Below, piece after piece: positions 11,897-57,110 of a stretch of 64,000 nt of DNA. Every line of letters begins with the position of its first letter. The first letter of the stretch is position 1. The notes under the pieces are model-generated. The model was not told the DNA's origin. It made no database searches and saw nothing but the letters and a program-made list of their open reading frames with translations. Origin of the DNA: Elusimicrobiota bacterium (GTDB taxonomy: Bacteria > Elusimicrobiota > Elusimicrobia > UBA1565 > UBA9628). The translations under genes were made by a program, and so were the position numbers. The DNA lies in NCBI GenBank assembly GCA_028868375.1, contig JAGWUP010000009.1, forward strand, positions 32,538 to 96,537, in the 5' to 3' direction.

Positions 11897-11909
11897 GGAC
11901 CCCCCTCGC

Positions 11910-12806
11910 TCAACTGCTGGCGCCCAGGGCCTCCAGGCGTCGCTCCACTTGGGCCGCGCGCCCGGCCTGCCCGCAGCGCATAAATCCATCCCGCGCCTCC
12001 TGCAGGCATATGCGGGCCAAACGCGTCGTCTCCCGAGGATCCGGTTGGCAGGAGGCTAATTGGAGATAGCCGCCGGCCCGATTGAGTTGGGTGGCGGCGT
12101 ACTCGCAAGGATATCGGCTCTTTGAGCGTACCCTCAAGGCACGCTCAAAATGGCGCAGAGCGCGGCAGGCGTTTTGTTGCGGCCGTGCCGCGCCAGCGCA
12201 AAGACCCAAGAATGCGCTGCCCAAACCGTCGTGCAATCGCGCGTTTTTAAGCGGCATCAGCTGGAATGTAAAGACGCGCAGTGCTCTCCGGTAGCAGTCG
12301 ATCGCCTTAAGCGTGCTGGCCTTCCGGTCCTTAGAGGGCAGCTCGCGATATGCGATCGCCAAATTCTCAAGCGCGTCCGCGTAGAGCGCCGGAACCTGCC
12401 GGCGCGTCAACACCACCAAGGCCGCCTCGTAATGAAACACCGCATCCTCCCATGCCTTGGGAAAACCAGCCCCGGCCAAGCGGCGGCAAGCCTCGCCCTG
12501 CTTGCAGCGCTGCCGGGCCCAAGCGTCGATTTCTTCTTTCCTCATATATATCGCAGCCGCCGCTCCAAAACAAAGAATCGCCTCGCCGAAGCGCTCCTCC
12601 GGCTCTAGCCCCAGCCCCAGCGAGGCGCGGCCAAGCAGGTCGAGAAGCCTGGCTCTGGGCAAGCCCCCCCCGCCGGAAGCCAATCGCCGGCGCATGCCGC
12701 GCAGAAGCGTCAGCGCGACTCCACTCAGACGCCCCAGCATCCTCTCGCGCATATGCCTCCAGCGCGTCACGTTATTGAAGCCCGCAACGCGCCTGCCAGG
12801 GCGCAA
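11910..12806 (-). CDS. hypothetical protein, helical/TPR-like repeats
   Basis: ORF with repeated A-x-x-Y/AL-R helical hairpin patterns. No confident family. Confidence 0.35.
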   Translation of the reverse strand: MRPGRRVAGFNNVTRWRHMRERMLGRLSGVALTLLRGMRRRLASGGGGLPRARLLDLLGRASLGLGLEPEERFGEAILCFGAAAAIYMRKEEIDAWARQRCKQGEACRRLAGAGFPKAWEDAVFHYEAALVVLTRRQVPALYADALENLAIAYRELPSKDRKASTLKAIDCYRRALRVFTFQLMPLKNARLHDGLGSAFLGLCAGAARPQQNACRALRHFERALRVRSKSRYPCEYAATQLNRAGGYLQLASCQPDPRETTRLARICLQEARDGFMRCGQAGRAAQVERRLEALGASS

Positions 12807-17137: not shown

Positions 17138-18507
17138 GCCTCCACCCCGGGGGCGTCCTTGGCGTAATGCAGCACGCTCTTGACCTCGCTCATCGCGATG
17201 ACCGGCAGCACGCGGCAGAAGAGGAAGAAGCAGGTGAAGAACAGCCCGAAGCTGCCGATGAGAGTGCCCACCTCGATATAGGTCGGATAGTACATCCGCC
17301 AGCTCGAGGGCAGGAAATCGCGATGCAGGGAGACCGTGATGATGACCCAGCGCTCAAGCCACATGCCGACGTTGATGAGGATCGAGATCACCCAGACCTT
17401 CCAAGGCGTCCTGCGCACGCGCTTGAACCAAAGGGCCTGCGGCGCGAAGACGTTGCAGAACACCATCGTCCAGTAGAAGGGCCAGTAGGGCCCGCGCATC
17501 CGGTTGACCGTCGAGAAGCGCTCGAAGGGATTGACGCTGTACCAGGAGGTGAACAGCTCCGTGGCGTAGGCCAAGCCCACGATCAGCGAGGTCAAGAGGG
17601 TGATCTTGCACATGGCGTCGATGTGCTCGATGGTGATGTAGGCCTCCAGGCGCATCACCTTGCGGGCGATGATCAAGAGGGTCAGGACCATCGCGAAGCC
17701 CGAGAAGATGGCCCCGCAGACGAAATAGGGCGGAAAGATGGTGCTGTGCCAGCCGGGCAAGATCGAGGTCGCGAAGTCGAAGCTGACGATGGTGTGCACC
17801 GAGAAGACCAGCGGGGTCGCCAGGCCGGCCAGCAGGAGGTACATCGACTCGTAGTGAGACCAGGTCCGCTGCGAGCCGTCCCAGCCGAGGCTCAGGCCCC
17901 GATAGAGCGTCTTACGCCAGCCCCGCGGCAGCCGCGCGGCCAGCGTCGCCAAGTCGGGCAGCAGACCGATGTACCAGAAGGTCGCCGAGATCGTGAAGTA
18001 GGTGCTGATGGCGAAGAAATCCCATAGCAGCGGGGAGCGGAAGTTGACCCAGAGAGGACCCCTGGGGTTGGGGTAGGGCACCACCCAATAGGCCAGCCAG
18101 GGACGGCCCATGTGGATCAATGGGAAAAGCGCGGCGCACATGACGGCGAAGAGGGTCATCGCCTCGGCCGAGCGGTTGATGGAGTTGCGCCAGCGCTGGC
18201 GGAACAGGAAAAGAATGGCGGAGATGAGCGTGCCGGCATGGCCGATACCGACCCAGAATACGAAGTTGGTGATGTCGAAGGACCAGCCGATCGTCTTGTT
18301 GAGGCCCCAGGTGCCGATGCCGGTCCACACCTGGTCGATGACCATGATCAGGCCCGTGAGCAGGGCCGTGGACGACAGGCCGAAACCCAGCCACCACAGG
18401 CGCGTCGGGGTGCGGTCCAGTGGATCGCAGACGTCGCGCGTGACGTCCGCGCAGGTCTTGTCGCCCTCGACCAGCGGCTTTCTCAACAGAGACAGGGTTG
18501 AGGTCAT
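17134..18507 (-). CDS. actC: alternative complex III subunit ActC (NrfD/PsrC-family quinol-interacting membrane subunit)
   Basis: MTSTLSLLRKPLVEG start (TGATG overlap with actB), then about 10 TM helices with polysulfide-reductase NrfD-like conservation (WGLNKTIGWSFDITNFVFWVGIGHAGT). Confidence 0.85.
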   Translation of the reverse strand: MTSTLSLLRKPLVEGDKTCADVTRDVCDPLDRTPTRLWWLGFGLSSTALLTGLIMVIDQVWTGIGTWGLNKTIGWSFDITNFVFWVGIGHAGTLISAILFLFRQRWRNSINRSAEAMTLFAVMCAALFPLIHMGRPWLAYWVVPYPNPRGPLWVNFRSPLLWDFFAISTYFTISATFWYIGLLPDLATLAARLPRGWRKTLYRGLSLGWDGSQRTWSHYESMYLLLAGLATPLVFSVHTIVSFDFATSILPGWHSTIFPPYFVCGAIFSGFAMVLTLLIIARKVMRLEAYITIEHIDAMCKITLLTSLIVGLAYATELFTSWYSVNPFERFSTVNRMRGPYWPFYWTMVFCNVFAPQALWFKRVRRTPWKVWVISILINVGMWLERWVIITVSLHRDFLPSSWRMYYPTYIEVGTLIGSFGLFFTCFFLFCRVLPVIAMSEVKSVLHYAKDAPGVEA

Positions 18508-21419
18508 CAGGCCTTCTCGCTGTCGTTGCGCACCTTGGTCTGGTAGAACACGGAGGGGCCGACGCCGAGCTCCGCCAGCACGCGATAGCTGCGCGAGCGC
18601 CGCGCCACCTTGGCCACGCGGCTGTCCGGATCGTTCATGTCTCCGAAGACGATCGCCTGCGCCGGGCAGCTTTGGGCGCAGGCCGGGGTGATGTCGCCGT
18701 CCTTGAGGACGCGATCGTCCTCGCGCGCCTGGAACTTGCCGGAATAAATCCTCTGGACGCAGAAGTTGCACTTTTCCATGACGCCGCGCTGGCGGACGGT
18801 GACGTCCGGATTGAGGGCGAGATTCTGGACCAGGTCCTGATGCGCGTAGTCGAACCAATTGAAGCGCCGGACCTTGTAGGGGCAGTTGTTCTCGCAGTAG
18901 CGGGTTCCCACGCAGCGGTTGTAGACCTGCATGTTGAGGCCCTCGCTGGAATGGACGGTGGCCAGCACCGGACAGACCGTCTCGCAGGGGGCGTTGTCGC
19001 AGTGCTGGCAGAGCATCGGCTGGAAAGCGACCTGCGGGCTTGCCTGCGGCTGTCCCGGAGCGCCGGAGTAATAGCGGTCGATGCGGATCCAGGACATGTC
19101 GCGGCCCTTGCGCACCTCGGCCTTGCCGACGACGGGGACATTGTTCTCCACCTGGCAGGCGATGACGCAGGCGGAGCAGCCGGAGCAGGAGTTCAAGTCG
19201 ATGGCCATGCCCCACTTATGCCCCGGGTACTTATGCCGCGGCCAAAGCTCTTCTTCTTTTTTCGGCGGTGGATTTCCGCTGTGCGGATCCAGGCGGTAGG
19301 CCGACTCCGTCGTCTCTTGCACGATATTCCGCTTCTGTCCCAGCAGCGGATCGGTCTCGAAATCGTAGATCTGGACCTTCGACAAGGGGCTGGTCCGGTC
19401 CGTCGCGGCAAGCGTCACCGCGCCCGAGGCGACGAAGGGCCGGATGTTCGCTCCCGCGAGGAGATCCTTCTCGATGGGGAACAGCTTGACGGTCGGGTAA
19501 TTCGCCGCGACCTTGCCCGCCCCCGTGCGGCCGTAGCCGAAGGCGACGGCCGCCACCCCCGGGGTCTGTCCCAGCTGCACGTAGGCCGGCAGCTCCGCCG
19601 AGCGGGCGCCATCGGACAGCCGCAGGACGCGGCCCTCCTCGACGCCCATGCGCTTGGCATCCTCGGGGGCCAGGCAGACGTAATTGCCCCAGGAGGCGCG
19701 GGTGACCGGATCGGAGAGCTCCTGGAGCCAGGGGTTGTTCGCCTGACGCCCATCGGCCAAGGCCACCGAGGCATAGGCAGCCAACTCAAAGGCTCCCGCC
19801 GCGGCGGGCTTGCGCGCCGGCTTCAAGCTGGAGACGGCACGGGCGGAGAAGTGCGCGGCCGGCATCCTAGGCTCGTCGGCCAGCACGACGCCTTTCTGCA
19901 GGGAGTCGCGCCAAAAAGCCTCGAAGCCATGGGCGCCATGGACATGGGGATAGACCTTGCGGCGCCAGAAGCCCTTGATGAAATCGTGGCCGCTGCTTCG
20001 ATCGCCGGACCAGCGCAGCACCGCCTCCAAGGCCGGACGGCTGTCGAAAAGCGGGGCGATCGTGGGCTGCTGGAGGCTGTAGACTCCGGAAACGGGCCGA
20101 GAGTCCCCGAAGGCTTCAAGCGAGTGCGAAAGCGGGGCGGCGATGCGGCAGAGGGAAGCCGTCTCGTCCAGGCGGTCGGCGAGGGCCACGGACAGCCCGA
20201 CTTTCTTGAGCCCTTCCTTGAACTCCTCGGCGCGGCCCAAATCGTAGACGGGATTGGCGTCGAGAACGATCAGGACGTCGACGGCGCCGCGGCCCATCTG
20301 CGCCAGCAGCTCGGAGACCGCGGAGTCGTCTCCTTGCGCCTGGCGGGAGGGGCGCTCGATGTCGATCGTCCTGCCGTAGGCGCCGAGCATCGCGTTGATC
20401 CAATTGACCAGTATCTGAACCGCCGGATCGTTGGAGCCGCTGACGACCAAAGCGTTCCTGCCGGCCTTGGAAAGAGCCCCCGCCGTCCGCTCGAGCGTCC
20501 CCTGATCCACCCCGCAAGCGCCTTCGACGGCGGGAAGCGGTCCTGTCCAGCCGGTATGGCTGGCGACCAAGCGGCCCAGGGCCGCCACGGCCGAGAACTC
20601 CTGGGAGGGCAGAAGTCCGGCGCGCAAATCGGCGTTAGCCCCCGTCACGGAGAGGCGGGGCTCGAACTGGGCATGCCACGACATTCCGCCCTGAGGCTGA
20701 TCCGGGCGGCGCCCCTTGGACCAGCCGCGGATGAATTCCACGGGGAAAAGCCACGCCCCCAGGAAATCCGCGTCGAAGCCGACGATGGCGCGCGCCTCGT
20801 CGAAGCGATAATGCGGCACGACGGCGCGGCCGTGGGTGCGGCGATGCGCCTCGGCGATCGCCCAGGAGGAAATGGGATCGTAAACGACCCGGCGAAGCGA
20901 CGGATAACGGCGCGCCATCCGTTCGATGGCCGCGTCCAGCGAGGGGCTGGTCGAGGTCCGGCCAAGGATGCGGACGGATTTAGCCGACCTCAGGCGCCGC
21001 CGGACCTCGGCGTCCACCGTCGCCCAGCTCGCCTCGCCGCCTCCGATGAGCGGCTGGCGCAGGCGCTCCGAATCGTAGAGGTCCAGGATCGTAGCCTGTC
21101 CCCGCGCGCACAAGCCGCCGCGCGACAAGGGATGGTCGGGATTGCCCTCCAGCTTGATCGGCCTGCCGTCCCGGCTCTTGACCAGGACGCCGCAGGCGGA
21201 ACTGCAGCCGCCGCAGGTGGAGGCGAACCACAAGGCCTTGCCGGCGACAGCGTCCTCGGGCTGCCGGACGTAGGGCAGAATCTTCTCGACCGGGGTGCGC
21301 AGCTTGCAGCCCGCCATCGATAGGGCGGCGAAGCTCGCTCCCAAGAACTCCAGAAAATCGCGGCGCGTCAGGCCGTCAGCCTTGTCGTCGGCGCCGGCCT
21401 TGGCGGCATCGTCTTCCAT
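18507..21419 (-). CDS. actB: alternative complex III subunit ActB (molybdopterin-oxidoreductase-like plus 4Fe-4S ferredoxin-like fusion, Tat-exported)
   Basis: Twin-arginine signal TRRDFLEFLGASFAAL, a MopB-like domain, then a C-terminal polyferredoxin region with repeated CxxCxxCxxxCP motifs (CSGCSACVIAC, CQHCDNAPCETVCP, CNFCVQRI). Start chosen at Met39 of the ORF. Confidence 0.85.
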   Translation of the reverse strand: MEDDAAKAGADDKADGLTRRDFLEFLGASFAALSMAGCKLRTPVEKILPYVRQPEDAVAGKALWFASTCGGCSSACGVLVKSRDGRPIKLEGNPDHPLSRGGLCARGQATILDLYDSERLRQPLIGGGEASWATVDAEVRRRLRSAKSVRILGRTSTSPSLDAAIERMARRYPSLRRVVYDPISSWAIAEAHRRTHGRAVVPHYRFDEARAIVGFDADFLGAWLFPVEFIRGWSKGRRPDQPQGGMSWHAQFEPRLSVTGANADLRAGLLPSQEFSAVAALGRLVASHTGWTGPLPAVEGACGVDQGTLERTAGALSKAGRNALVVSGSNDPAVQILVNWINAMLGAYGRTIDIERPSRQAQGDDSAVSELLAQMGRGAVDVLIVLDANPVYDLGRAEEFKEGLKKVGLSVALADRLDETASLCRIAAPLSHSLEAFGDSRPVSGVYSLQQPTIAPLFDSRPALEAVLRWSGDRSSGHDFIKGFWRRKVYPHVHGAHGFEAFWRDSLQKGVVLADEPRMPAAHFSARAVSSLKPARKPAAAGAFELAAYASVALADGRQANNPWLQELSDPVTRASWGNYVCLAPEDAKRMGVEEGRVLRLSDGARSAELPAYVQLGQTPGVAAVAFGYGRTGAGKVAANYPTVKLFPIEKDLLAGANIRPFVASGAVTLAATDRTSPLSKVQIYDFETDPLLGQKRNIVQETTESAYRLDPHSGNPPPKKEEELWPRHKYPGHKWGMAIDLNSCSGCSACVIACQVENNVPVVGKAEVRKGRDMSWIRIDRYYSGAPGQPQASPQVAFQPMLCQHCDNAPCETVCPVLATVHSSEGLNMQVYNRCVGTRYCENNCPYKVRRFNWFDYAHQDLVQNLALNPDVTVRQRGVMEKCNFCVQRIYSGKFQAREDDRVLKDGDITPACAQSCPAQAIVFGDMNDPDSRVAKVARRSRSYRVLAELGVGPSVFYQTKVRNDSEKA

Positions 21420-21439
21420 GATCTTTTCGCCTGTCTCGC

Positions 21440-22330
21440 TCACCAGTGGCATGCCGCGCAGTCGGTCGGCCCCCCCACGCGTTTCCAATGCGTCGGCGCC
21501 TGTCCGGGACGCAGGCGATGGCATTGGATGCACCAGCCCATCGACAGACTAGCCGCCTGCCTCACCCGATCCATTTTCTGGATCGGTCCGTGGCACTCCT
21601 GGCACTGGATGCCGTTGGCGATGTGGACACGGTGGCTGAAATGGGCGAAGTCCGGAAGATGGTGCACCCGCACCCACGGGATCGTCGCCGCCTCGGGAGT
21701 GGCGCGGGCATCCCAAAAATGGAGCAGCTTCGCGATCTCGGCGGACGGCTCCTTGGATCCCGCCATCCCCTTGACCACGTTATGGCAGTTCATGCAGACG
21801 CTGACCGCCGGCACCCCCGCCACGTCGCTGCTGCGAGCCCCATAGTGGCAATAGAAACAGGAAATCTTGAGCTTCCCCGCATGGATGGCGTGCGAAAAGG
21901 CGATCGGCTGCACCGGCTCGTAGCCTTGCTGATTGCCGAGCAGATGGAAATAGCGGCGCCCGCCCAAGGACAGGTAGGCGCAGAGTATCGCCAGCAAGGC
22001 CAGCACCAATGGAGCGCCTCGGACGCCGAACTGCCAGGCCCAAATCATCCCCGCCAGCAGCACCAAGGAAAAGGCGATGCCGGGCCAATAAATCGAGAAG
22101 CCCTCGTCGGGCGTCTTCACCTTGTCGGCCAGCGGCTCTTGCGGCAAGAGCTGCTGATCCAGGGAAGCCGCCGGGTCGCGATGACCCGGGACGACCGCAT
22201 GGTAGCGCAAGGTCTGCGCGCTCTTTCGTTTCGGGGCGTGACCCGTCCCCGCGACCGCTGGCCCCGCGGCCGCCAAGACGAGGAGCCAGGCCCACTTCAT
22301 TCGCCGAGTTCTCGCATGTCGCCTACCCAT
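21440..22330 (-). CDS. actA: alternative complex III subunit ActA, pentaheme c-type cytochrome
   Basis: Five CxxCH motifs (CFYCH, CMNCH, CQECH, CIQCH, CAACH) and an N-terminal signal/anchor. The start may be Met11 at 22300, given the position of the sigma-54 promoter. Confidence 0.85.
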   Translation of the reverse strand: MGRRHARTRRMKWAWLLVLAAAGPAVAGTGHAPKRKSAQTLRYHAVVPGHRDPAASLDQQLLPQEPLADKVKTPDEGFSIYWPGIAFSLVLLAGMIWAWQFGVRGAPLVLALLAILCAYLSLGGRRYFHLLGNQQGYEPVQPIAFSHAIHAGKLKISCFYCHYGARSSDVAGVPAVSVCMNCHNVVKGMAGSKEPSAEIAKLLHFWDARATPEAATIPWVRVHHLPDFAHFSHRVHIANGIQCQECHGPIQKMDRVRQAASLSMGWCIQCHRLRPGQAPTHWKRVGGPTDCAACHW

Positions 22331-22348
22331 TGATGCGTGGGGGTATCA

Positions 22349-22364
22349 GGCAACACTCTTGCCA
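22349..22364 (-). promoter_or_regulatory. sigma-54 (-24/-12) promoter TGGCAagagtgTTGCC upstream of actA
   Basis: Exact GG-N10-GC spacing with TGGCA and TTGC elements on the minus strand, 20-50 nt upstream of the candidate actA start codons. Confidence 0.6.
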
Positions 22365-22414
22365 TCGAACGCGGCAAATAAACGCATTTATTCTGAAATT
22401 ATTCTAAAAGCGCA

Positions 22415-22447
22415 GGAATAGATTCCAAGGGATTTAAAATAAATCCC
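22415..22447. promoter_or_regulatory. two adjacent palindromes (GGAATAGATTCC and GGGATTTAAAATAAATCCC) in an AT-rich region 50-85 bp upstream of the actA sigma-54 promoter; candidate activator (UAS) sites
   Basis: Perfect inverted repeats read from the sequence, in the position expected for bacterial enhancer-binding protein sites. Confidence 0.4.
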
Positions 22448-22478
22448 GGTCCGATACCGGCAGTCGCGAGGCCCGATC

Positions 22479-23024
22479 TCACTTGCTGGATCCCTTCGCC
22501 TCCGGTCCCTTCGTTTTCTCTTTGGCCTCCGGTTTCTTTGCTTCCTCCTTGAGCTTCTGCTTGATCAGGTCCGCCTTGCGAACCGATGAATCGTAGATCA
22601 AGAAGGCTGTGATCTTGTCTTCGTCCTTGTCGCTGATCCCGGAATGCCTCTTATGCCGCATCTTGCTCACGTAAGCCTTCCATTCCTCCGGCAAGGCGTA
22701 ATGCGAGTTGATCGGACGCGCCAAGGTATGGCAGCGCGAGCATTTTTGGGCGAAGACCTTGTAATTCTTCTGCTGCTCGGGCGGATACTTGGAGACGTCG
22801 ATGGTGTCCGGTCCGTTGTCGAACGGACAGACGCTGTTGCCGTCCTCGTCGAGCTTGCACTCGCTGCCCGGAATCGGCGTCAGCTTCTGCGCCGCCTGCC
22901 CGGAGTCGCCGTCGGCCCAAGCCGTCCCGCGGCCAACCGCCAGCCAGCCGCCGGCAAGCAAGACCGCGGCGACTCCGACGCTCTTTACAGTCCGCCAACC
23001 GCTAGAAGTCATCCTTCCCTCCAT
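22479..23024 (-). CDS. small secreted monoheme cytochrome c-like protein with Lys-rich C-terminal tail
   Basis: Signal peptide, a single CSRCH motif and a tail KEEAKKPEAKEKTKGPEAKGSSK. Lies 26 nt downstream of the cyc2-like gene. Confidence 0.55.
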   Translation of the reverse strand: MEGRMTSSGWRTVKSVGVAAVLLAGGWLAVGRGTAWADGDSGQAAQKLTPIPGSECKLDEDGNSVCPFDNGPDTIDVSKYPPEQQKNYKVFAQKCSRCHTLARPINSHYALPEEWKAYVSKMRHKRHSGISDKDEDKITAFLIYDSSVRKADLIKQKLKEEAKKPEAKEKTKGPEAKGSSK

Positions 23025-23049
23025 GCATCCCGCTGGCCGCGACGCCGGC

Positions 23050-24417
23050 CTAGAAGCCCACCTCCACCTGCAGGCTGGCCCGATCGCCGTGCACCGCCAG
23101 AGTGCCCGCGGTTGCGGTCAGCGTCCCGCCCTGGTAACCCCGCGTCGTGTCCACGGAGTACTCGGCGAAAGCCTTCACGTTGGGCTGGAAATAATGCGCC
23201 AGGTGGAAGGTGATGTAATTGAACTGCTGCGTGCCGTTGAAGGTCGTGTACCAGTTCTCGCGAATCAACGGCATCAGGAACGGATATGCCTCGTTGCCCC
23301 TCTTGTAGGCATAGGCCAACTCGGCGTAGGCCGCGCGATCCGTCGCAGTGGCCCCGTCGAAGGAGGGATCGCCCTCATGAGTGTAGGCGAAGGCTCCGCG
23401 CGCGGCGAAGTTGCCGATCTCCCAAAGGGCGTCGAAGCCGGTCCAGACGAACTGCTGCTTGGACAAGACTCCCGCCGTGCCCCCAGTGAAGCCGCTGGCG
23501 TCGCGAGGCCCCTCGTGGCCGTAGGACCCGAAGGCTCCGACCATCAGCCCGGAGTTGTTGTCGAAGGCCAGCCGCAGGTCTCCGTTGGTCGGCGCGTTGG
23601 CCTGCCGGCCCAGGTCGTCATCCTTGCTGGCGCCCGCCGCATAATAAAGGAACGCGGCGTTCGGCAGCGGAACCTGTCCGTAGACGTACATCGTCTGCTG
23701 CGTGCCGGTCAGGGAATTGCCGGCCACCGAGCTCTGATCCGGCTGCAGCAGGTCCGTCGCCCGGTTTGCGATCGTCGGGCTCTCCGCCGCGGACAGCGTC
23801 TGGTAGGGATCGTCGACGAAGAAACCGCGGCGCGCCAGCACCACGTTGAGCTGGTCATAGGGATGATAGCCGAAGCGCAGGTCGCCCAAACCCGGAGCGA
23901 AGCCGCCCGCTGCGTTGGCGTCCATCTCGCCGAAGTAGGAGATTTGCCTGGCCGCGTCTCCCCCCGCCACGAAGAAATCCACGTCGTTGAGCGGCTGGGA
24001 CTTGAAGCCGCCCGTGTTGGGACTCGCCGTGCCGCCCATCTGGCCTCCGGCGTTCGCGATGTTGCCGCGCCCGTTGTCGAAAGGCCGAGAGCGCACGATC
24101 ACCGCCCAGGGGAATATCTTCTCGATGCTCATCTGCTTATCGGAGCTCTTGAGCACGCCGACGTCGGAGTCCTTATCCCGGACGTAGCCGTTCATCTTGA
24201 ACTGCCGGCCGTAGGCGTTGAGGATCGGGAAGGCGTAATGGCATTGCGAGCAAGAGACTCCGTACTTGCGCGCGAAGGACGGAAGGGCCTGGACCGACTC
24301 GACGGCGCTGCGGCGCAGCGGGCAGAGGTGCTCGCACGTCTGATGCAGGGGCGGCAGCAGCCAAGCGACGGCCAATAGGACCGCCGCCAGAGCCGGGATC
24401 ATGAATTTCTTGGACAT
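23050..24417 (-). CDS. Cyc2-like fused monoheme cytochrome c / outer-membrane beta-barrel porin (candidate Fe(II) oxidase / extracellular electron transfer protein)
   Basis: GAGGAG RBS, signal peptide MSKKFMIPALAAVLLAVAWLL and the N-terminal motif LPSFARKYGVSCSQCHYAFPILNAYGRQFK carrying one CxxCH. About 400 aa of Gly/Tyr/Asp-rich amphipathic beta-strand sequence end in a terminal Phe (QVEVGF). Confidence 0.6.
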   Translation of the reverse strand: MSKKFMIPALAAVLLAVAWLLPPLHQTCEHLCPLRRSAVESVQALPSFARKYGVSCSQCHYAFPILNAYGRQFKMNGYVRDKDSDVGVLKSSDKQMSIEKIFPWAVIVRSRPFDNGRGNIANAGGQMGGTASPNTGGFKSQPLNDVDFFVAGGDAARQISYFGEMDANAAGGFAPGLGDLRFGYHPYDQLNVVLARRGFFVDDPYQTLSAAESPTIANRATDLLQPDQSSVAGNSLTGTQQTMYVYGQVPLPNAAFLYYAAGASKDDDLGRQANAPTNGDLRLAFDNNSGLMVGAFGSYGHEGPRDASGFTGGTAGVLSKQQFVWTGFDALWEIGNFAARGAFAYTHEGDPSFDGATATDRAAYAELAYAYKRGNEAYPFLMPLIRENWYTTFNGTQQFNYITFHLAHYFQPNVKAFAEYSVDTTRGYQGGTLTATAGTLAVHGDRASLQVEVGF

Positions 24418-24456
24418 AGTCTCCTCACTCGATGGATGATGTTGTTCTGCGCACAC

Positions 24457-24472
24457 AGCAACATTTTTGCCA
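24457..24472 (-). promoter_or_regulatory. sigma-54 (-24/-12) promoter TGGCAaaaatgTTGCT upstream of the cyc2-like gene
   Basis: Consensus spacing, located about 40 nt upstream of the ATG and directly downstream of the NtrC-family regulator gene. GATTCC...GGAATTTC repeats lie 40-75 bp further upstream (24509-24534). Confidence 0.6.
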
Positions 24473-24552
24473 AAGAACGCGTCAAAATATCATATTTCCC
24501 GACTGGATGATTCCAATCCAAAGAGAGGAATTTCTAAAAAGCTTGAAAAAGC

Positions 24553-25926
24553 TCAGCGGTAGAGCCGCGGCTGGAGGCCGTATTTCTTAAGGTACCAATA
24601 CAAGTTGCTCAGCGGCAGGGCCGCGGCCTGGGCCGCCGCCTTGGCGTTGCCGTGGTGTTCCTTAAGGAGAGCGTCGAAGTATTCCCGCTCGAAGGCCTGG
24701 ATGCCCTGCCTCTTTCGCTCCACGAACCCCCCCCGCGCCTCGAGCGGCTCCGTCGGAGCCGAGACGAGGTTCTCGGGAAGGTCCTCGGGCCGCAGGAGGC
24801 TGCGGCCGCACAGCAGGATGGAGCGCTTGAGGACGTTCTGCAGCTCGCGGATGTTTCCGGGCCAGGAGTAGCTCGTCAAAATCTCCAGCGCCGCGGGGTC
24901 GACGCGCAAAACGTTCGAGTCCAGCTCCTTGGAGTAGCGCGGCAGGAAATGCTCCAGCAGCAGCCGTATGTCGTCCGGGCGCTCGCGCAGCGGAGGCACG
25001 CGGATGGCGACCACGTTCAAGCGATAGAAGAGATCGGAGCGGAAGCGCCCCGCCGCGACGTCCGCCTTCAAGTCGCGATTGGTGGCGGCGACGACGCGCA
25101 CGTCGACGCTTTGGACCTCGTTGCCTCCGACCCGGCGAAATTGCCGCTCCTGGAGCGCGCGCAGGAGCTTGGCCTGCAGCCCTCCCGGCAATTCCCCCAC
25201 CTCGTCCATGAAGAAAGTGCCGTGGTCGGCGAACTCCAGGAGCCCCGGAGCGGCCTCTCCCGCGTCGGTGTAGGCCCCGCGCTCGTGGCCGAAGAACTCG
25301 TTTTCAAGCAGGTTCTCCGGGATCGCGCCGCAGTCCACCGGCACGAAGCGCCCACGCCTGCCGGAGCGCGCGTGCAGGCGCCGCGCGATGAGCTCCTTGC
25401 CGGTTCCCGACTCGCCCAGGATCAGCACGTCCGCCGCCGTCGCCGCCACCTTGTCGACCAGCGCCAAGACCTCCAGAATGCTGGGGCTGGCGCCCACGAT
25501 GCCGTCGGTAGCGTATTCCCGGGTGAGGTGCCTGGTGAGCAGGCGATGCTCCCCCTTGAGCCGCCTCTGCTCCAAGGCGCGCGCCACCTTCAGGCGCAGG
25601 TCGTCGGGGTGGAAGGGCTTGATCAAGTAGTCCAGCGCCCCGTCGCGCAGCGCCTGCACGGCGGATTCGACGCCCGGGAAAGCCGTGATCAGGATGAAGG
25701 GAAGCTCGGCGTCCGTCTTCTTGGCGGCGCGCAAAAGCTCCAGGCCGCTTAAACCCGGCATGTTGATGTCGGCCACCACCGCGTCGAACGTTCCCCGGGT
25801 CAAGCGCTCCAGGGCGCGCGGCGCATCCGCCTCCAGCACGACGTTGACGGCCTCCCGCGAGAGCGCGGCCTTGCAGGTCGAGAGCATGTCCCTCTCGTCG
25901 TCGACGACGAGGACGCTCTGGGTCAC
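24553..25926 (-). CDS. sigma-54-dependent response regulator (NtrC/AtoC family: REC + AAA+ + Fis HTH)
   Basis: REC domain (VLVVDDERDM, phospho-Asp), AAA+ Walker A GESGTGKE, the GAFTGA-like ENEFFGHERGAYTDA sigma-54 contact loop, and a C-terminal HTH. Confidence 0.9.
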   Translation of the reverse strand: MTQSVLVVDDERDMLSTCKAALSREAVNVVLEADAPRALERLTRGTFDAVVADINMPGLSGLELLRAAKKTDAELPFILITAFPGVESAVQALRDGALDYLIKPFHPDDLRLKVARALEQRRLKGEHRLLTRHLTREYATDGIVGASPSILEVLALVDKVAATAADVLILGESGTGKELIARRLHARSGRRGRFVPVDCGAIPENLLENEFFGHERGAYTDAGEAAPGLLEFADHGTFFMDEVGELPGGLQAKLLRALQERQFRRVGGNEVQSVDVRVVAATNRDLKADVAAGRFRSDLFYRLNVVAIRVPPLRERPDDIRLLLEHFLPRYSKELDSNVLRVDPAALEILTSYSWPGNIRELQNVLKRSILLCGRSLLRPEDLPENLVSAPTEPLEARGGFVERKRQGIQAFEREYFDALLKEHHGNAKAAAQAAALPLSNLYWYLKKYGLQPRLYR

Positions 25927-27287
25927 GGCGCCGGAGCCCCCGGAGCGGGAAAGCGGATGGTGAAGCTCGCCCCCCGGCCGACGCCCCCGTCCACCAGGAT
26001 TTCCCCGCCGTGCGCCTTGACGAAGGACAGGGAGATCGGCAGGCCCAGGCCGGTCCCGTGGTCGGCCGTCTTGGTCGAGAAAAGGGGCTCGAAGATCTTG
26101 CGCAGATGCTCCGGCGCGATGCCTTCCCCGGTGTCCGAGATCACCGTCTCGATCCAGCCGCCCGCCTCGCGCGTGGCGGCGCCGAGCCGGCCCCCGCGAG
26201 GCATGGCCTCGATCGCGTTATGGATCACGTTCAGGTAGGCATGAAAGAGGTCGTCGTAGCTGGCCCGCACCGGCGCGACGGCGCGCAAATCGCGGCGGAC
26301 CTCTATGCCGCGGGCGCGCGCCTGCGCCGCGCTCGTGGCCAAGGCGTCGCAGAGCACCTCGTTGACGTCCACCTCGCCGCGCGGCTCGGAGGAAGGCTTG
26401 AGCAGGCGCAGCAGGCGCTGCACGACCCGGCCCACGCGATCGCTCTGGCGGTCGACGATCTCCAGGGACTCCTCAAGGAACTCCCCGGAGCGAAACTCCG
26501 GGGAGCCGGAGCGCAGCAGCTTCATGCGCGCGGAGATGATCCCGATGGGGTTATTGACCTCGTGCGCGATGAAGCCGACGATCTGCCCCAAAGCGCCCAG
26601 CCGCTCGGCCTTGAGCAGCCGCTCCTGGCTGTCGCGCAGCCTGCCCATGATCGTCGTGATGAAGTAGGCCGTGCCGGCCAATAGCCCCAGGAAGGTCGCC
26701 GTCATGCCCACGACCTCCCTCAGCCGCTCCGGGCTGGCGAACGCCAGCAGGCGGTAGTGAGGCCAGAGGCCGGCGTACTCGCCGAAGCTCAGGCAGCAGA
26801 AGAGGCCCCCCGCCATGGCGGTCACCAGCCAGGCGTCGGAGACCGACAGGAGAATCCCCGCCATCAAAACGTGGAAGACGTAGAGAACGTACAGGGGGTT
26901 CTCCAGCCCTCCTGAAAAATGGAGCAGAAAGGTCAGCAAGACCAGGTCGAAGGCCATCTGCGCCAGCAGGAATGGGCGCTGCCGGCGCAGCCTGGAGCGC
27001 AGGGACAGGAAAGCGAAATTCCCGAGCAGGATGGCCGCCACGCATGTCCAGAGCGGCGCGGCCAAGGAGGGATCGACCCAGCCCAGGACGTGGGCGGCTA
27101 AAAAGACCGTCACGCCGGCCGCGGTCGCCGCCACGCCGCGCATGCGGATAAGCCAATCGGCCGGGCCGCGGCCGCTGCCGGCCGCCTCGGCGCCGATGAT
27201 CAGGGGAAGCTCCGGCGCCAGCCGCCGTCCCATCACCGCCGCGCCGACGGCCACCAGGCAGAGCAGGACGCCTAGGCCTTCGAGCAT
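25923..27287 (-). CDS. membrane sensor histidine kinase
   Basis: About 6 N-terminal TM helices, H-box FIAHEVNNPIG, and an HATPase_c with N, G1 (DTGEGI) and G2 (GTGLGL) boxes. Overlaps the regulator gene start. Confidence 0.85.
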   Translation of the reverse strand: MLEGLGVLLCLVAVGAAVMGRRLAPELPLIIGAEAAGSGRGPADWLIRMRGVAATAAGVTVFLAAHVLGWVDPSLAAPLWTCVAAILLGNFAFLSLRSRLRRQRPFLLAQMAFDLVLLTFLLHFSGGLENPLYVLYVFHVLMAGILLSVSDAWLVTAMAGGLFCCLSFGEYAGLWPHYRLLAFASPERLREVVGMTATFLGLLAGTAYFITTIMGRLRDSQERLLKAERLGALGQIVGFIAHEVNNPIGIISARMKLLRSGSPEFRSGEFLEESLEIVDRQSDRVGRVVQRLLRLLKPSSEPRGEVDVNEVLCDALATSAAQARARGIEVRRDLRAVAPVRASYDDLFHAYLNVIHNAIEAMPRGGRLGAATREAGGWIETVISDTGEGIAPEHLRKIFEPLFSTKTADHGTGLGLPISLSFVKAHGGEILVDGGVGRGASFTIRFPAPGAPAP

Positions 27288-27346
27288 ATCTGGCGGTTAT
27301 TTTAGCGAAATTCCCCCAACCGCGGCCAGACACGGACGCAAGCCGG

Positions 27347-28165
27347 CTACGCCTGCGTGGAGCCTCGGCGGCGGCTTGTCGCTAGCAGCAGAAGCAGGAA
27401 GACGGCCAGCATGATCAGGACGATCGTGCCGCCGGTCGAGAGATTCAGATAGAAGGAGGCGAGCATCCCGCAGACCACCGAGAACAGGGAGATCGCCTCC
27501 GCGTAGGCGATCGTGGCGGCGAAGCTGCGGCGCAGCTGCAGGGCGGCCACGACCGGCACCACGATCAGGGCCGCGATCAGCAGAACCCCTATGATGGGAA
27601 TCGACAGGGTGATGGTCAAGGCGGAGAGCAGTATCAGGATCACGTTGATCGCCCGCGTCGGCAAGCCGGAGACCCGCGCCGATTCCTCGTCGAACGTGAT
27701 GTAGACCAGCTCCTTATAAAGGAAGGCGACGGCGGCGGCGACGATGACGGCCAAGACGGAGATCGTCAGGACGTCCCCCCTGGTGACCGTGACGATGCTT
27801 CCAAAAAGATAGTTGAAGAGGCTGGTGTTGAAGCCCCGGCCCAGGCTGAGCAGGATGGTCGCCAAGGCCAGGCTGCCGGACAAGAACAGGGCCAGCGCCG
27901 ACTCGCCGTAGACGCGTCGGGTCAGCCTGAGGCTCTCGATGCCGAGGCTGGCCAGCACGGTGACGGCCAGGGCGGCGAGGATGGGGTTAAAGCCCAGCAG
28001 CAGGCCCAGGGCGATGCCGGCCAAGGAGACGTGCGCCAGGGTGTCGGCGATCAAGGAGTAGCGCCGCAGCACCAAAAAGGTGCCGATCAAGGGGGCCACC
28101 AGGGCGACGATGATCCCGGCCTCGAAGCCCCGCAGCACGAAGCCGTAATGGAAGAGGGCCAGCAC
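27347..28165 (-). CDS. metal ABC transporter permease (ZnuB/TroC/MntB family)
   Basis: GTG start overlapping the ATPase stop (TAGTG), with an AGGAGG RBS. 8 TM helices with ZnuB-like conservation (SLIADTLAHVSLAGIALG). Confidence 0.75.
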   Translation of the reverse strand: MLALFHYGFVLRGFEAGIIVALVAPLIGTFLVLRRYSLIADTLAHVSLAGIALGLLLGFNPILAALAVTVLASLGIESLRLTRRVYGESALALFLSGSLALATILLSLGRGFNTSLFNYLFGSIVTVTRGDVLTISVLAVIVAAAVAFLYKELVYITFDEESARVSGLPTRAINVILILLSALTITLSIPIIGVLLIAALIVVPVVAALQLRRSFAATIAYAEAISLFSVVCGMLASFYLNLSTGGTIVLIMLAVFLLLLLATSRRRGSTQA

Positions 28166-28932
28166 TAGGCCTCCTGGCCGCGGCGCTCGTGGGGATGGAT
28201 CTCCGCGTGGGTCTTGCGGAAATAATCGTCCAGGGACTCGTGAAAAAACAGGGTCCGGTCGACGCAGGCGACGTGCATCGCCTGATGCGCCATCCGCTCG
28301 ATGTCGTGGGTCACCAGGACGACCGTCAAGCGCAGCTCCTCGTTGAGGCGCCTGAGCAGCCGGTAGAATTCGTCCTTGACCGCCTGCTCGACTCCCACCG
28401 TGGGCTCGTCTAGAAACAGGACCTCCGGCTCGCCGGCCAGCGCGCGCGCGATGAAGACCCGCTGCTGCTGGCCGCCGGAGAGATCCCCGATGAGGCGTCC
28501 CCGCTGCGGCAACAGGCCCACCCGCTCGAGCGCCAGCTCGGCCTGGGCCCTGTCCTGCCTGCCCAGGCGCCGCAGCAGGCCCCGCCGCGCGAAGCGCCCC
28601 ATCAATACGACTTCCTCGACCGTGGCGGGAAAATTCTCGTCGAAGCTGGTCGCCTTCTGAGGCACGTAGCCGATCCGAAACCATTGCCGGAAGGCCGAGA
28701 TGTCCTGGCCGAAGAGCCGGACCGCGCCTGAGGAAGGCTTGAGCAGGCCCAGCGTGATCCGCAGCAGGGTCGTTTTTCCAGCCCCGTTGCCGCCGACGAT
28801 GCCGAGATAGTCGCCGCGATGAACCGCCAGGCTGACGTCGCTTAGAATCTCGCGGGCTCCGTAGGAAAAGGACGCGTGCGAGACCTCGATGATGTTGTCG
28901 CGATGATCGACGGCCGCGGCGGCTAGCGGCAT
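28165..28932 (-). CDS. metal ABC transporter ATP-binding protein (ZnuC/TroB family)
   Basis: Walker A GGNGAGKTT, signature LSGGQQQRVFIARA, Walker B LFLDEP and an H-loop. Start is 4 nt after the substrate-binding protein's stop. Confidence 0.85.
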   Translation of the reverse strand: MPLAAAAVDHRDNIIEVSHASFSYGAREILSDVSLAVHRGDYLGIVGGNGAGKTTLLRITLGLLKPSSGAVRLFGQDISAFRQWFRIGYVPQKATSFDENFPATVEEVVLMGRFARRGLLRRLGRQDRAQAELALERVGLLPQRGRLIGDLSGGQQQRVFIARALAGEPEVLFLDEPTVGVEQAVKDEFYRLLRRLNEELRLTVVLVTHDIERMAHQAMHVACVDRTLFFHESLDDYFRKTHAEIHPHERRGQEA

Positions 28933-29753
28933 CGCAGGGCCGTCCTGAGGGCGGCGAGGTTGGCCCTCATCCGCGCGAAATAGTCCTTTTGAGCGGGCAG
29001 GGTGGCCTCCAGCGAATCGAGGGACAGCGCCGTCGCTCCGGTCTCGCCGGCCACGGTGCGGGCCAGCTTGGGGGAGACCAGGGGCTCGAAAAAGACGGTC
29101 GTGACGCGGTGCTGCCGCGCGAAATCGACGACTCCGGCCAGGCGCCGAGGGGAGGGCTGGGAATCCGGGGACAGCCCTAAAATCGCGACCTGCCGCAGCC
29201 CGTAGGCCGCGGCGAGGTAGCCGAAGGCGGCATGGGAGACGACGATGTCGCGGCCGGCGCAGCGCGCCAGGCCTCGCCGATAGTCCCCGTCCAAGGCCTC
29301 CAGGCGGGCGTGGAGGAGGCGCTCGTTGGCGGCGAAGAACGGCGCGTCGGCGGCGTCCGCCCCGGCCATGGCCCGCTCGATGTCCGCGGACAGGCGCTCG
29401 GCCAGCCTCGCAGACAGCCAGACATGGGGATCCGGATCGCCGAAGCCGACGCGCGCCGAGCGGGAGCGCCGCGACTTGAGGGACTCGGCGAGGCGCTCTC
29501 CCCACGGTTCCACGACGCCGTCGAAAAGAAACAGCCCGCTGCCCTCGATGCGGGCGACGTCGCGAGCCGTCGGCTCGTAGTCGTGCGGCTCGGCGCCGGC
29601 CGGAGTGACGTTGAACACCGCGGCGCGGCGTCCCCCGATCGAAGAGGCGAAAAACCAGATCGGATAAAAGCTGGCCGCGACCGTCAAGCGGGGCGCGGCG
29701 GCCGCCGGAGCGCCCAAGGCCAGCAGCGCGGCCAGGAGCGCCGAGGGCCTCAT
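28923..29753 (-). CDS. metal ABC transporter substrate-binding protein (ZnuA/TroA cluster-9 family)
   Basis: Signal peptide MRPSALLAALLALGAPAAA, conserved HAAFGYL and DPHVWL metal-site motifs. ATGA overlap with the upstream yceI-like gene. Confidence 0.8.
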   Translation of the reverse strand: MRPSALLAALLALGAPAAAAPRLTVAASFYPIWFFASSIGGRRAAVFNVTPAGAEPHDYEPTARDVARIEGSGLFLFDGVVEPWGERLAESLKSRRSRSARVGFGDPDPHVWLSARLAERLSADIERAMAGADAADAPFFAANERLLHARLEALDGDYRRGLARCAGRDIVVSHAAFGYLAAAYGLRQVAILGLSPDSQPSPRRLAGVVDFARQHRVTTVFFEPLVSPKLARTVAGETGATALSLDSLEATLPAQKDYFARMRANLAALRTALRCR

Positions 29754-47328: not shown

Positions 47329-47344
47329 ATGCAACAAAATAGCC
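47329..47344 (-). promoter_or_regulatory. sigma-54 (-24/-12) promoter TGGCTattttgTTGCA upstream of yceI-porin operon
   Basis: Perfect GG-N10-GC spacing in an AT-rich intergenic region, about 28 nt upstream of the yceI ATG. Confidence 0.55.
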
Positions 47345-47380
47345 AAAACAATAAGACGACTTACTTTCGCTAGCCTTGAA

Positions 47381-57046: not shown

Positions 57047-57110
57047 GAAGGATTCGCCCTTATCTTGCAACAGGTCTGCCATCGGCCGGGTTGTTGCTGC
57101 GGTTTTCATC

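Follow-up and report, generated by a model that had tools for sequence, protein, structure and literature searches.

Which signals switch on the respiratory genes of this locus, and do they belong to one regulatory unit? We analysed 64,000 nucleotides of an Elusimicrobia contig (the window, by which we mean this whole stretch of DNA). On its minus strand, a membrane histidine kinase gene is followed by an NtrC-type activator gene, a first predicted promoter, a cyc2-like gene, a monohaem cytochrome gene, a second predicted promoter and then actA-B-C-D onward, the genes of alternative complex III (ACIII). Activation of sigma-54 promoters by NtrC-class proteins is a textbook mechanism. Judging from comparison of sequences, we consider it probable that the cis-regulatory core of a local two-component sigma-54 regulon lies here, with two promoters accompanied by paired activator sites. 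The genes concerned are as follows.

25923-27287, minus strand: membrane sensor histidine kinase, 454 aa (Pfam HisKA and HATPase_c)
24553-25926, minus strand: NtrC-type response regulator or bacterial enhancer-binding protein, 457 aa (Pfam Response_reg 1e-24, Sigma54_activat 1e-63 and AAA_lid_14)
23050-24417, minus strand: cyc2-like gene, 455 aa (translation)
22479-23024, minus strand: p181, small monohaem c-type cytochrome with CSRCH (translation)
21440-22330, minus strand: actA, multihaem ACIII subunit (Pfam Cytochrome_C7 3e-12)
13111-21533, minus strand: rest of the ACIII operon, actB onward (Pfam domains), with the next five entries
18507-21533, minus strand: actB (Molybdop_Fe4S4 and Fer4 domains)
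17134 to about 18510, minus strand: actC (NrfD)
16607-17137, minus strand: actD (ActD PF11821, 4e-47)
14265-16610, minus strand: 781-aa protein with seven cytochrome c domains (seven Pfam Cytochrome_CBB3)
13111-14292, minus strand: 393-aa membrane protein
60773-61861, plus strand: compact sigma-54 homologue, 362 aa (Sigma54_DBD 3e-12)

The sequence-only reading had placed one sigma-54 promoter before the cyc2-like gene and another before actA. Both motifs are present where it put them.

24457-24472, minus strand (read 24472..24457): predicted sigma-54-type -24/-12 promoter of the cyc2-like operon, TGGCAAAAATGTTGCT (exact pattern match)
22349-22364, minus strand (read 22364..22349): predicted sigma-54-type -24/-12 promoter of actA, TGGCAAGAGTGTTGCC (exact pattern match)

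As claimed, the GG-N10-GC spacing of the sigma-54 consensus (TGGCAC-N5-TTGCW) is exact and the orientation is that of the coding strand; both motifs match TGGCA-N6-TTGC without error. The first occupies part of the 135 bp that separate the regulator stop (24553) from the ATG of the cyc2-like gene (24417), and the second part of the 148 bp from the p181 stop (22479) to actA. Transcription is predicted to start at about 24446 and 22338, respectively. The cyc2 promoter stands 41 nt from ATG 24417, which has the ribosome-binding site GAGGAG. Four exact TGGCA-N6-TTGC matches occur in the 64-kb window against 0.44 expected, a count reached by none of 100 shuffles, and each of the four precedes a gene of its own strand. 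If one mismatch is allowed the excess disappears (16 found, 13.4 expected), so the weight falls on the exact matches. Just 5' of the two -24 elements are near-identical blocks, CGCGTTC-nn(n)-TGGCA.

The motifs could also be read as palindromic operators (TGGCA-N6-TTGCC as GGCAA-N5-TTGCC) bound by an unrelated dimeric repressor or activator, and the actA motif does have a near-match on the opposite strand (22348-22362, plus strand). However, neither the cyc2 motif nor most of its orthologous counterparts are palindromic. Promoter function agrees with the orientation, with the distances of 41-86 nt to start codons and with the linked sigma-54 activator and sigma-54 homologue, and we regard operators as extremely unlikely.

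The adjoining regulator had been assigned to the NtrC family, and its domains bear this out: a complete REC domain and AAA+ sigma-54 activator domain, encoded next to the cyc2 promoter. Its phospho-acceptor, Asp53, is invariant in the orthogroup. The loop that contacts sigma-54 reads GAYTDA in the window instead of GAFTGA; eleven of the 12 orthogroup members have GAYTDA, GAFTDA or GAYTGA, and P0020 has GAHKGA. In HrpS the F-to-Y variant occurs naturally in active form (PMC3105312), and activity is reported for natural GAYTGA variants (PMC3105312, PMC6615313). Pfam HTH_8 was not detected in the window activator or its orthogroup (P0001-P0020). A C-terminal helix-like segment, GNAKAAA...LPLSN(L/F)YWYLKK, is conserved across the orthogroup, the window included.

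The 362-aa homologue is a candidate for the sigma factor. Its AlphaFold model (pLDDT 85) has sigma-54 chains as all of its top 29 PDB matches, over up to 348 aligned columns. In sequence it has diverged strongly, scoring 51 bits where the TIGR02395 cutoff is 277. The family is confined to Elusimicrobia and annotated 'hypothetical protein'. It is thus a predicted sigma factor, of the kind that these promoters would require. Two orthologous loci (L013 and L014) have a sigma-54-like gene between the kinase and activator genes.

Orthologous activators are 56-63% identical to the window activator, the nearest being at 63%. Nine of the 10 loci that encode them (L010, L012, L013, L015, L016, L017, L018, L099 and L100) show a GG-N10-GC promoter together with a tandem pair of TTCCAA-N4/5-TTGGAA palindromes, 20-22 bp apart, between the activator gene and its downstream neighbour. 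A cyc2-like homologue comes next at eight of these nine, with one gene in between in L099; at L013 it is placed after cytochrome c maturation genes. When the cyc2 promoter is aligned with seven orthologous spacers, the GG, G and TGC columns are invariant. The half-site spacing of 20-22 bp holds in all 11 regions (nine orthologous and two window spacers). Distances from the proximal site to the GG fall into classes of 38-41, 49-52 and 62 bp, with steps of about one helical turn (9-12 bp). At both window promoters 38-39 bp separate the end of the proximal site from the GG. The kinase gene is preceded by a -24/-12 motif in all seven orthologues examined; in the window it has none upstream, and a near-match at 30954 is intragenic. 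Nine genome-collection relatives of the cyc2-like protein (L001-L009, 45-63% identity) have neither the regulator nor an upstream -24/-12 motif.

Inverted repeats upstream of each promoter had also been proposed as shared enhancer sites for the adjacent regulator. The repeats exist: GATTCC at 24509-24514, GGAATTTC at 24528-24535, GGAATAGATTCC at 22416-22427 and GGGATTTAAAATAAATCCC at 22430-22448. The idea of shared sites is supported by the orthologous loci and by a matrix built from them, but the proposed boundaries mis-paired halves of neighbouring sites. By this comparison the repeating unit is the palindrome TTCCAA-N4/5-TTGGAA, 16-17 bp long; two copies occur, and 21 bp separate their right half-sites. 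GATTCC...GGAATTTC joins halves of two different sites, GGAATAGATTCC is the junction of two adjacent sites, and the left arm of GGGATTTAAAATAAATCCC falls outside the palindrome and is conserved nowhere. On their own, such short arms of 5 bp would be weak evidence in AT-rich spacers; the repeats rise above chance because they coincide in part with sites fitting a motif that the orthologous loci supplied independently. The candidate sites are listed here.

24532-24548, minus strand: candidate distal enhancer site of the cyc2 promoter, TTTCAA-GCTTT-TTAGAA (orthologue-derived matrix, 11.5 bits)
24511-24526, minus strand: candidate proximal enhancer site of the cyc2 promoter, TCTCTT-TGGA-TTGGAA (21-bp half-site spacing)
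22423-22438, minus strand: candidate distal enhancer site of the actA promoter, TTTAAA-TCCC-TTGGAA (orthologue-derived matrix, 15.2 bits)
22402-22418, minus strand: candidate proximal enhancer site of the actA promoter, TTCCTG-CGCTT-TTAGAA (three mismatches to the N5 pattern; 21-bp spacing)

The matrix was made from 14 sites of the seven orthologous loci with N4-spaced sites, without use of the window. Its best match in the whole 64 kb is 22423-22438, upstream of actA (3 of 5000 spacer shuffles as good, p ~0.0006), and its fourth best is 24532-24547, upstream of cyc2 (94 of 5000, p ~0.019). AT-rich spacers favour matches to AT-rich motifs. Read with N4, the cyc2 distal site is TTCAAGCTTTTTAGAA at 24532-24547 and aligns in register with the orthologous sites; its N5 form has a counterpart in L099. 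The distal site centres lie 67.5 bp (actA) and 68.5 bp (cyc2) from the GG, and each distal site is paired with a weaker one exactly 21 bp nearer the promoter, right half to right half. The window sites are degenerate, with one good half each. The cyc2 proximal site, with a perfect TTGGAA right half and a degenerate left half, is weak alone (0.2 bits), and the actA proximal site scores 2.4 bits. Palindromes with mismatches are not enriched across the window overall (2 against 0.8 expected, 9 against 8.6); what marks the enhancer sites is where they lie, not a window-wide excess. A profile made solely from the orthologous spacers gives weak nhmmer matches, with the actA region ranked first in the window (E = 0.058) and the cyc2 region fifth (E = 0.96). 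Together, the orthologous promoters and palindromes and the matrix matches in both spacers argue that the shared-enhancer reading holds.

TTGGAA(TC) might instead be the -35 box of sigma-70 promoters that drive both operons in place of the -24/-12 elements (TTGGAA-16-TATGAT and TTGGAA-16-TAGAAT). A consensus scan does find matches at 24516..24489 and 22428..22401, each 9/12, and five matches in a 7-kb region against 0.7 expected, but the shuffles behind that expectation drew on GC-rich DNA and understate chance matches in AT-rich spacers. In the orthologues TTGGAA is a palindrome half with no -10-like hexamer 16-18 bp further on, and the sigma-70 reading leaves the conserved GG-N10-GC element and the adjacent activator unexplained. 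We think it very improbable that sigma-70 accounts for both operons in this way; a weak basal sigma-70 promoter overlapping the enhancer is possible.

The comparative evidence bears on the cyc2 promoter, and the actA promoter is predicted from the window itself. Among relatives (80 metagenomic ActA loci, the nearest at 63% identity, plus L009 and L019) the actA motif has no orthologous counterpart: no metagenomic locus has an exact -24/-12 before actA, and seven of the 80 have a one-mismatch match within 700 bp. It may then be that only the cyc2 promoter works, that the actA motif is a relic or chance, and that actA-F is transcribed by read-through from the cyc2 promoter. The orthologous clusters are consistent with this, having cyc2-like and actA-like genes co-directional in one cluster; their spacers after the cyc2-like gene contain no -24/-12 of comparable quality, only a weak TGGCCGGTGAGGTGCG (L012) and an intragenic TGGCAAGGGAATTGCG (L018). 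So is the weakness of the one terminator-like element 3' of p181.

22446-22460, minus strand: weak terminator-like hairpin CCGGTATCGGACCGG, then GATTTATTTT (simple pattern scan)

The spacer between p181 and actA folds no more stably than shuffles (z = 0.11), and Rfam has no matches in 21000-28000. We rejected GGGATTT...AAATCCC both as a terminator and as a site: its RNA fold is no better than shuffles, and its right arm alone overlaps a site of the conserved type. Against read-through, the actA spacer holds the best enhancer-site match of the whole window and is the top match of the orthologue profile. Its site also lies at the same distance from the GG as at the cyc2 promoter, with an exact -24/-12 and a second site 21 bp away, and the two -24 elements share their near-identical 5' blocks. 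A single working promoter is thus unlikely in our view, and we favour two. An ancestral enhancer-promoter cassette seems to have been copied in this lineage to give the one at actA.

The actA promoter position had been taken to argue that ActA starts at Met11 (22300) rather than 22330. From the C of the -12 element there are 20 nt to ATG 22330 and 50 nt to ATG 22300. Elsewhere among the regulatory regions the -12 element is 41-86 nt from the start codon (45-86 nt in the orthologues), which favours Met11 and makes the start at ATG 22300 plausible. The N-terminus is not conserved among ActA homologues, and L009 and L019 carry an extra cytochrome c domain there; homology therefore does not settle the start codon.

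What the two promoters would control is respiratory. The cyc2-like protein begins with a signal peptide (MSKKFMIPALAAVLLAVAWLL...), has a single CXXCH (CSQCH) near its N-terminus and continues in a long Gly/aromatic-rich C-terminal part that ends in ...LQVEVGF, as outer-membrane barrels do. It has no sequence matches in Pfam, NCBIfam or PDB, and we describe it from these features as a putative iron-oxidising outer-membrane cytochrome-porin. Homologues occur at 45-63% identity in nine Elusimicrobia-type genomes and at 32-43% downstream of the orthologous regulators. Cyc2 has been reported in a 67% GC Elusimicrobiota genome (PMC8357290). The p181 gene likely starts at ATG 23012, behind GGAGG. 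Its homologue directly follows the cyc2-like gene or is close downstream at 14 of the 16 loci examined; at L003 it is further off, and at L001 it was not detected. The assignment to ACIII follows from co-linear ActA (multihaem), ActB (molybdopterin-like and Fe-S), ActC (NrfD) and ActD.

The arrangement resembles NtrB/NtrC-glnAp2, AtoSC, ZraSR and DctBD in pairing a kinase with a regulator of REC, AAA+ and (here putative) DNA-binding domains, and NtrC-class systems at large in the tandem palindromes upstream of -24/-12 and in a target operon that adjoins the regulator gene. It departs from the NtrC-class norm in the GAYTDA loop and in having respiratory cytochromes as targets. The best NCBIfam matches of the activator are AtoC, NtrC and ZraR, all far under cutoff, and it is not orthologous to any named regulator (AtoC, 449 bits against a cutoff of 714). 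To our knowledge, TTCCAA-N4/5-TTGGAA differs from the motifs of NtrC, NifA, GlrR and TyrR. It also differs from the TGT-N10-12-ACA class, and the window sites, ~47 and ~68 bp from the GG, are nearer to it than in Clostridiales regulons, where 100-250 bp is typical (PMC6615313).

The kinase has a multi-pass transmembrane N-terminus without a soluble sensor domain. Pfam 6TM_PilS (PF25323) matches it at 1.9e-5, just under cutoff, so it recalls PilS/PilR in this sub-threshold PilS-6TM-like membrane domain, an NtrC-type partner and a sigma-54 target next door; unlike PilS/PilR, it has no pilin gene nearby and its targets are cytochromes. RegB/RegA is a further parallel: there too the kinase crosses the membrane several times and has no soluble sensor domain, and respiratory and iron-oxidation genes are the targets. 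RegA lacks an AAA+ domain and works with sigma-70 promoters. Of the NCBIfam models, the RegB-family profile alone spans the kinase membrane domain in its alignment, at 100 bits against a cutoff of 350. Ten kinase orthologues align, with a membrane-part motif LLHFSGG-EN-L that is invariant and a Pro present in nine of the 10; the window has GGLENPL. This resembles the RegB quinone-site motif GGXXNPF, located between membrane helices 3 and 4, whose final Phe is fully conserved in that family (PMC3000548), whereas the residue here is Leu. The kinase is thus similar to the RegB-type quinone-sensing kinases and not a member of them. By analogy with that motif, its signal could, speculatively, be the redox state of the membrane or quinone pool. 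Redox control by RegB/RegA (PrrB/PrrA, ActS/ActR) includes the Acidithiobacillus ferrooxidans rus operon, which contains cyc2 (PMC5506826).

If the regulon works as NtrC-class systems do, the kinase would phosphorylate Asp53 of the activator, whose dimers, bound at the tandem palindromes, would form an AAA+ ring. Across a bent AT-rich spacer this ring would reach the closed complex of RNA polymerase and sigma-54, and it would open the promoter by ATP hydrolysis. Joint activation of the cyc2-like/p181 and actA-to-actF operons would then yield a single electron-transfer chain, made up of the outer-membrane cytochrome-porin, the periplasmic cytochrome that partners it, and ACIII.

We know of no earlier description of this regulator, of the motif it would bind or of the genes it would control. 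More tentatively, and with considerable doubt, we suggest an undescribed respiratory switch widespread in free-living Elusimicrobia: a RegB-like redox- or quinone-sensing kinase, an NtrC-type activator with its own motif and a compact sigma-54 that together control a Cyc2-type cytochrome-porin, a periplasmic cytochrome and ACIII, with the cassette duplicated here and the cluster split into two co-regulated operons. Cyc2 is the main genetic marker for inferring iron oxidation in uncultivated bacteria. Our literature search found no account of cyc2 regulation outside Acidithiobacillus, where it involves RegBA. The switch suggested above, if real, would be the first of its kind, dedicated to transcriptional control of Cyc2-type iron oxidation or electron uptake, to be proposed outside the acidophiles. 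Bacteria of this lineage need, and appear to possess, a sigma-54 hidden under a 'hypothetical protein' label. The cassette before the cyc2-like and ACIII genes gives independent support for placing the cyc2-like protein, p181 and ACIII in one pathway. The defined DNA motif provides a means to trace the regulon across other Elusimicrobia genomes, and the conserved kinase-activator-enhancer-promoter cassette yields a testable prediction of when the cyc2-like and ACIII genes would be expressed.

Every gene around the two promoters lies on the minus strand. In reading order, the features are:

27347-29921, minus: ZnuABC-type metal transporter
25923-27287, minus: membrane histidine kinase
24553-25926, minus: NtrC-type response regulator (Response_reg 1e-24, Sigma54_activat 1e-63)
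135 bp: spacer between the regulator and cyc2-like genes
24472..24457, minus: cyc2 -24/-12 16-mer, exact, TGGCAAAAATGTTGCT
23050-24417, minus: cyc2-like gene, 455 aa
22479-23024, minus: p181, monohaem cytochrome, 181 aa
148 bp: spacer between p181 and actA
22364..22349, minus: actA -24/-12 16-mer, exact, TGGCAAGAGTGTTGCC
21440-22330, minus: actA, followed by actB, actC and actD
after actD, minus: 781-aa protein (seven cytochrome c domains), then a 393-aa membrane protein

A partial NCBI protein, from a metagenome-assembled genome of Elusimicrobia, matches the regulator at 100% identity. The cyc2-like product carries a signal peptide and, near its N-terminus, one CSQCH motif; its last residues are ...VEVGF. 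The probable start of p181 is ATG 23012, with GGAGG ahead of it, rather than the first ATG (23024). The 781-aa protein (14265-16610, minus strand), whose seven monohaem domains are in tandem, takes the ActE position of the alternative complex III (ACIII) operon; a relative's locus, L101, has a 780-aa form.

Both 16-mers lie on the coding strand exactly where the sequence-only reading had placed its two sigma-54 promoters. In the 64 kb (67% G+C) there are four matches to TGGCA-N6-TTGC against 0.44 expected, and none of 100 shuffles gave four; with one mismatch allowed, the window shows no enrichment. The remaining two exact matches are also upstream of same-strand genes:

12798..12784, minus: TGGCAGGCGCGTTGC, 32 nt upstream of GGAGG and ATG 12752
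57081..57067, minus: TGGCAGACCTGTTGCA, ahead of a CBS-domain gene (ATG about 57046)

The gene at ATG 12752 comes directly after the ACIII operon; its product has 280 aa, and next in line is a tandem-Usp gene (11021-11989). Between the operon and this gene, a 37-nt inverted repeat (12825-12861/13080-13116, 95% complementary) surrounds 218 nt with two more nested inverted repeats; it may represent a MITE-like element or else a structured RNA. Upstream of the 57081..57067 motif is a second kinase/activator module with the same logic (module region 55606-60695, minus strand): a PAS histidine kinase (59244-60695) and an HTH_8-containing activator (57898 to about 59240), with a radical SAM gene (55606-56667) past the CBS-domain gene. 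A near-consensus -24/-12 motif, TGGCTATTTTGTTGCA (47331-47345, minus), sits past a fused cytochrome b/c gene; the 79-bp spacer that holds it leads to a YceI-like gene (46672-47301) and, after it, a porin O/P-like gene (45287-46675). Overlapping opposed -24/-12-like motifs, CGGCAGATTCGTTGCT (plus) and GGGCCATTGTGTTGCT (minus), occupy 54937-54968, a few bases ahead of the radical SAM gene whose start is at 54980.

Comparison with relatives was anchored on the regulator. In the genome collection, the loci of cyc2-like relatives (45-63% identity) lacked both the regulator and any -24/-12 motif. With the regulator as query, a clear orthogroup emerged at 56-63% identity (next step, 53%); its named members are all from Elusimicrobia. 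We took 10 loci with a regulator orthologue. In nine, the regulator gene is followed by one and the same cluster: a cyc2-like gene (32-43% identity to the window's), a p181 homologue, and cytochrome c, Band_7, actA-like and actB-like genes. In all nine, the spacer that follows the regulator gene has a GG-N10-GC element reading (T/C)GG(C/A)N-N6-(T/A)TGC (e.g. TGGCCAATGTGTTGCC, CGGCCGAAACGTTGCC), and upstream of this element a palindrome of 16-17 bp, TTCCAA-N4/5-TTGGAA, occurs twice. When seven orthologous and both window spacers were aligned with MAFFT, the promoter GG, G and TGC columns were invariant and the palindromes in register. L101, the tenth locus, lacks these sites; its regulator gene is followed by a terminator. 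At one of the orthologous loci, L013 (8501-11660), enhancer and promoter precede resB and ccsA (cytochrome c maturation), with the cyc2-like gene after these, a layout that would suit a regulon dedicated to electron transfer through cytochromes.

We built a symmetrised enhancer matrix from 14 sites (seven loci with N4 spacing; uniform background) and scanned the whole window. The top match in 64 kb lies upstream of actA and the fourth upstream of cyc2; in each spacer, the next independent match is exactly 21 bp nearer the promoter:

22423-22438, minus: actA distal site, TTTAAATCCCTTGGAA, 15.2 bits
22402-22417/18: actA proximal site, TTCCTG-CGCTT-TTAGAA
24532-24547: cyc2 distal site, TTCAAGCTTTTTAGAA, 11.5 bits
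24511-24526: cyc2 proximal site, TCTCTT-TGGA-TTGGAA, right half perfect

Dinucleotide-preserving spacer shuffles reached these scores in 3/5000 (actA) and 94/5000 (cyc2) cases. Two of the four window sites have N5 spacing, as do sites in L099, whose regulator is the closest to the window's (63%), and L100. Transfer of the motif to the window is reasonable because the activator's C-terminal helix, LPLSN(L/F)YWYLKK, is kept from the orthologues to the window. The second-best match (TGCCAAGATCGTGGAA, 13548-13563, 14.6 bits) falls within the final gene of the ACIII operon and lies about 750 bp ahead of the promoter at 12798; it may be chance or a remote enhancer.

The geometry is regular. Distal site centres are 67.5 bp (actA) and 68.5 bp (cyc2) upstream of the first G of GG. 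Across 11 regulatory regions, right half-sites are 20-22 bp apart, and the gap from proximal site to GG forms three classes: 38-41, 49-52 and 62 bp. The steps are about one helical turn (9-12 bp), as expected if the activator needs a fixed helix face relative to polymerase. The window promoters, with gaps of 38 and 39 bp, share a class with L016 and L017.

The repeats that had been proposed as shared enhancers are present where reported, and their GGAAT/ATTCC pentamers do belong to the sites, as (T)TGGAA(T) and (A)TTCCA(A), but the pairing had crossed from one site into the next. At actA, GGAATAGATTCC marks where distal and proximal sites meet; GATTCC...GGAATTTC at cyc2 combines the right half of the proximal site with a displaced TTCC beside the distal site. 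A 19-bp hairpin, GGGATTTAAAATAAATCCC, was rejected: only one arm overlaps the distal site, and the hairpin is not conserved. The actA spacer RNA folds no better than shuffles of the same spacer.

The actA promoter is without an orthologous counterpart, and its support comes from the window alone. The spacer after the cyc2-like gene holds no comparable -24/-12 motif in the orthologous clusters, where L012 (weak) and L018 (intragenic) gave the only candidates, and 80 metagenomic ActA loci plus L009 and L019 gave no exact match. The case for it consists of the exact motif, the window-best enhancer match at the distance seen for the cyc2 promoter, its 21-bp partner site, a block immediately upstream of the -24 that is near-identical in both promoters (CGCGTTC-nn(n)-TGGCA), and its rank as top nhmmer match to a profile of orthologous spacers only (E = 0.058). 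The orthologous cyc2 spacers resemble the actA spacer more closely than they do the window's own cyc2 spacer (compare TAAATGCGTTTATTTGCCG at actA with TAAATCCGTTTTATCGCGG in L010 and TAAACCCGCTTTATTTGCCC in L013), and we infer a duplicated enhancer-promoter cassette. The actA operon might also be transcribed by read-through from the cyc2 promoter, since the hairpin after p181 is weak. A sigma-70 scan detects one element in each spacer (TTGGAA-16-TATGAT, TTGGAA-16-TAGAAT); in the orthologues, however, TTGGAA is a palindrome half with no -10 box after it, so we rate these elements as at most a basal promoter overlapping the enhancer. Reading the -24/-12 motif instead as a palindromic operator works for the actA copy alone.

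The -12 C of the actA promoter (22350) is 20 nt from the ATG at 22330 and 50 nt from that at 22300; other regulatory regions have 41-86 nt. ActA read from Met11 begins MKWAWLLVLAAAGPAVAG, a typical signal peptide. The earlier choice of Met11 is likely. The N-terminal end is not conserved in homologues.

The activator's sigma-54 contact loop is GAYTDA. Eleven of 12 aligned orthogroup members have GAYTDA, GAFTDA or GAYTGA, and one (P0020) has GAHKGA; HrpS is naturally active with GAYTGA, and Clostridiales activators tolerate this variant (PMC3105312, PMC6615313). In the kinase, a multi-pass membrane domain alone precedes HisKA. The motif LLHFSGGLENPL at residues about 118-132 is invariant in ten orthologues save two substitutions. 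The window's GGLENPL is like the RegB quinone-site motif GGXXNPF (PMC3000548), which hints that the kinase senses the quinone pool; as its last residue differs and a RegB-family profile scored far below cutoff, a quinone or redox signal is a lead only. A -24/-12 motif precedes the kinase (or tatA-kinase) operon in 7/7 loci (L010, L012, L013, L015, L016, L017, L018; e.g. TGGCAATTTCGTTGCA at L010 5410), with a clear enhancer-type site nearby only in L012 (CTCCAAAAAATTGGAA). This suggests autoregulation of the kinase-regulator operon in the orthologous loci; the window has no -24/-12 promoter in front of it.

A divergent sigma-54 homologue is encoded in the window:

60773-61861, plus: 362 aa, C-terminal third matching Sigma54_DBD (3e-12)

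By sequence, the Sigma54_DBD match is confined to that third, and TIGR02395 gives 51 bits (cutoff 277). An AlphaFold model (mean pLDDT 85; 38 sequences) has only sigma-54 chains among its best 29 PDB matches (probability 0.92-1.00, up to 348 aligned columns). By eye, the N-terminus is like sigma-54 region I, and the C-terminal SRRTVNAVRHE is RpoN-box-like. We predict that it acts as a sigma factor. A family of 223 members at E < 1e-5 includes it (named members all Elusimicrobia; 120 listed are 340-398 aa and 54-79% identical), labelled 'hypothetical protein' by NCBI; the window protein may be the unrecognised compact sigma-54 of this phylum. A 380-aa sigma-54-like paralogue (30% identity to the window's) sits between the orthologous kinase and regulator genes in L013 (5862-7004) and L014 (3123-4265), which suggests that some lineages have a sigma-54 copy specific to this system.

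Earlier work has reported Cyc2, and likewise ACIII, from genomes of Elusimicrobia (PMC8357290; bioRxiv 10.1101/765248). On how the two are regulated we found no report, and the one paper found with both 'cyc2' and 'sigma-54' is on RegBA in Acidithiobacillus. We judge the dual promoter-enhancer arrangement to be a real feature, and the two-component unit would work like a standard NtrC-class enhancer-dependent system. What is new is the regulator orthogroup, which is not orthologous to any named regulator, with its motif TTCCAA-N4/5-TTGGAA; the short, helically phased enhancer-promoter distance; and the predicted targets, a cyc2-like cytochrome and ACIII.
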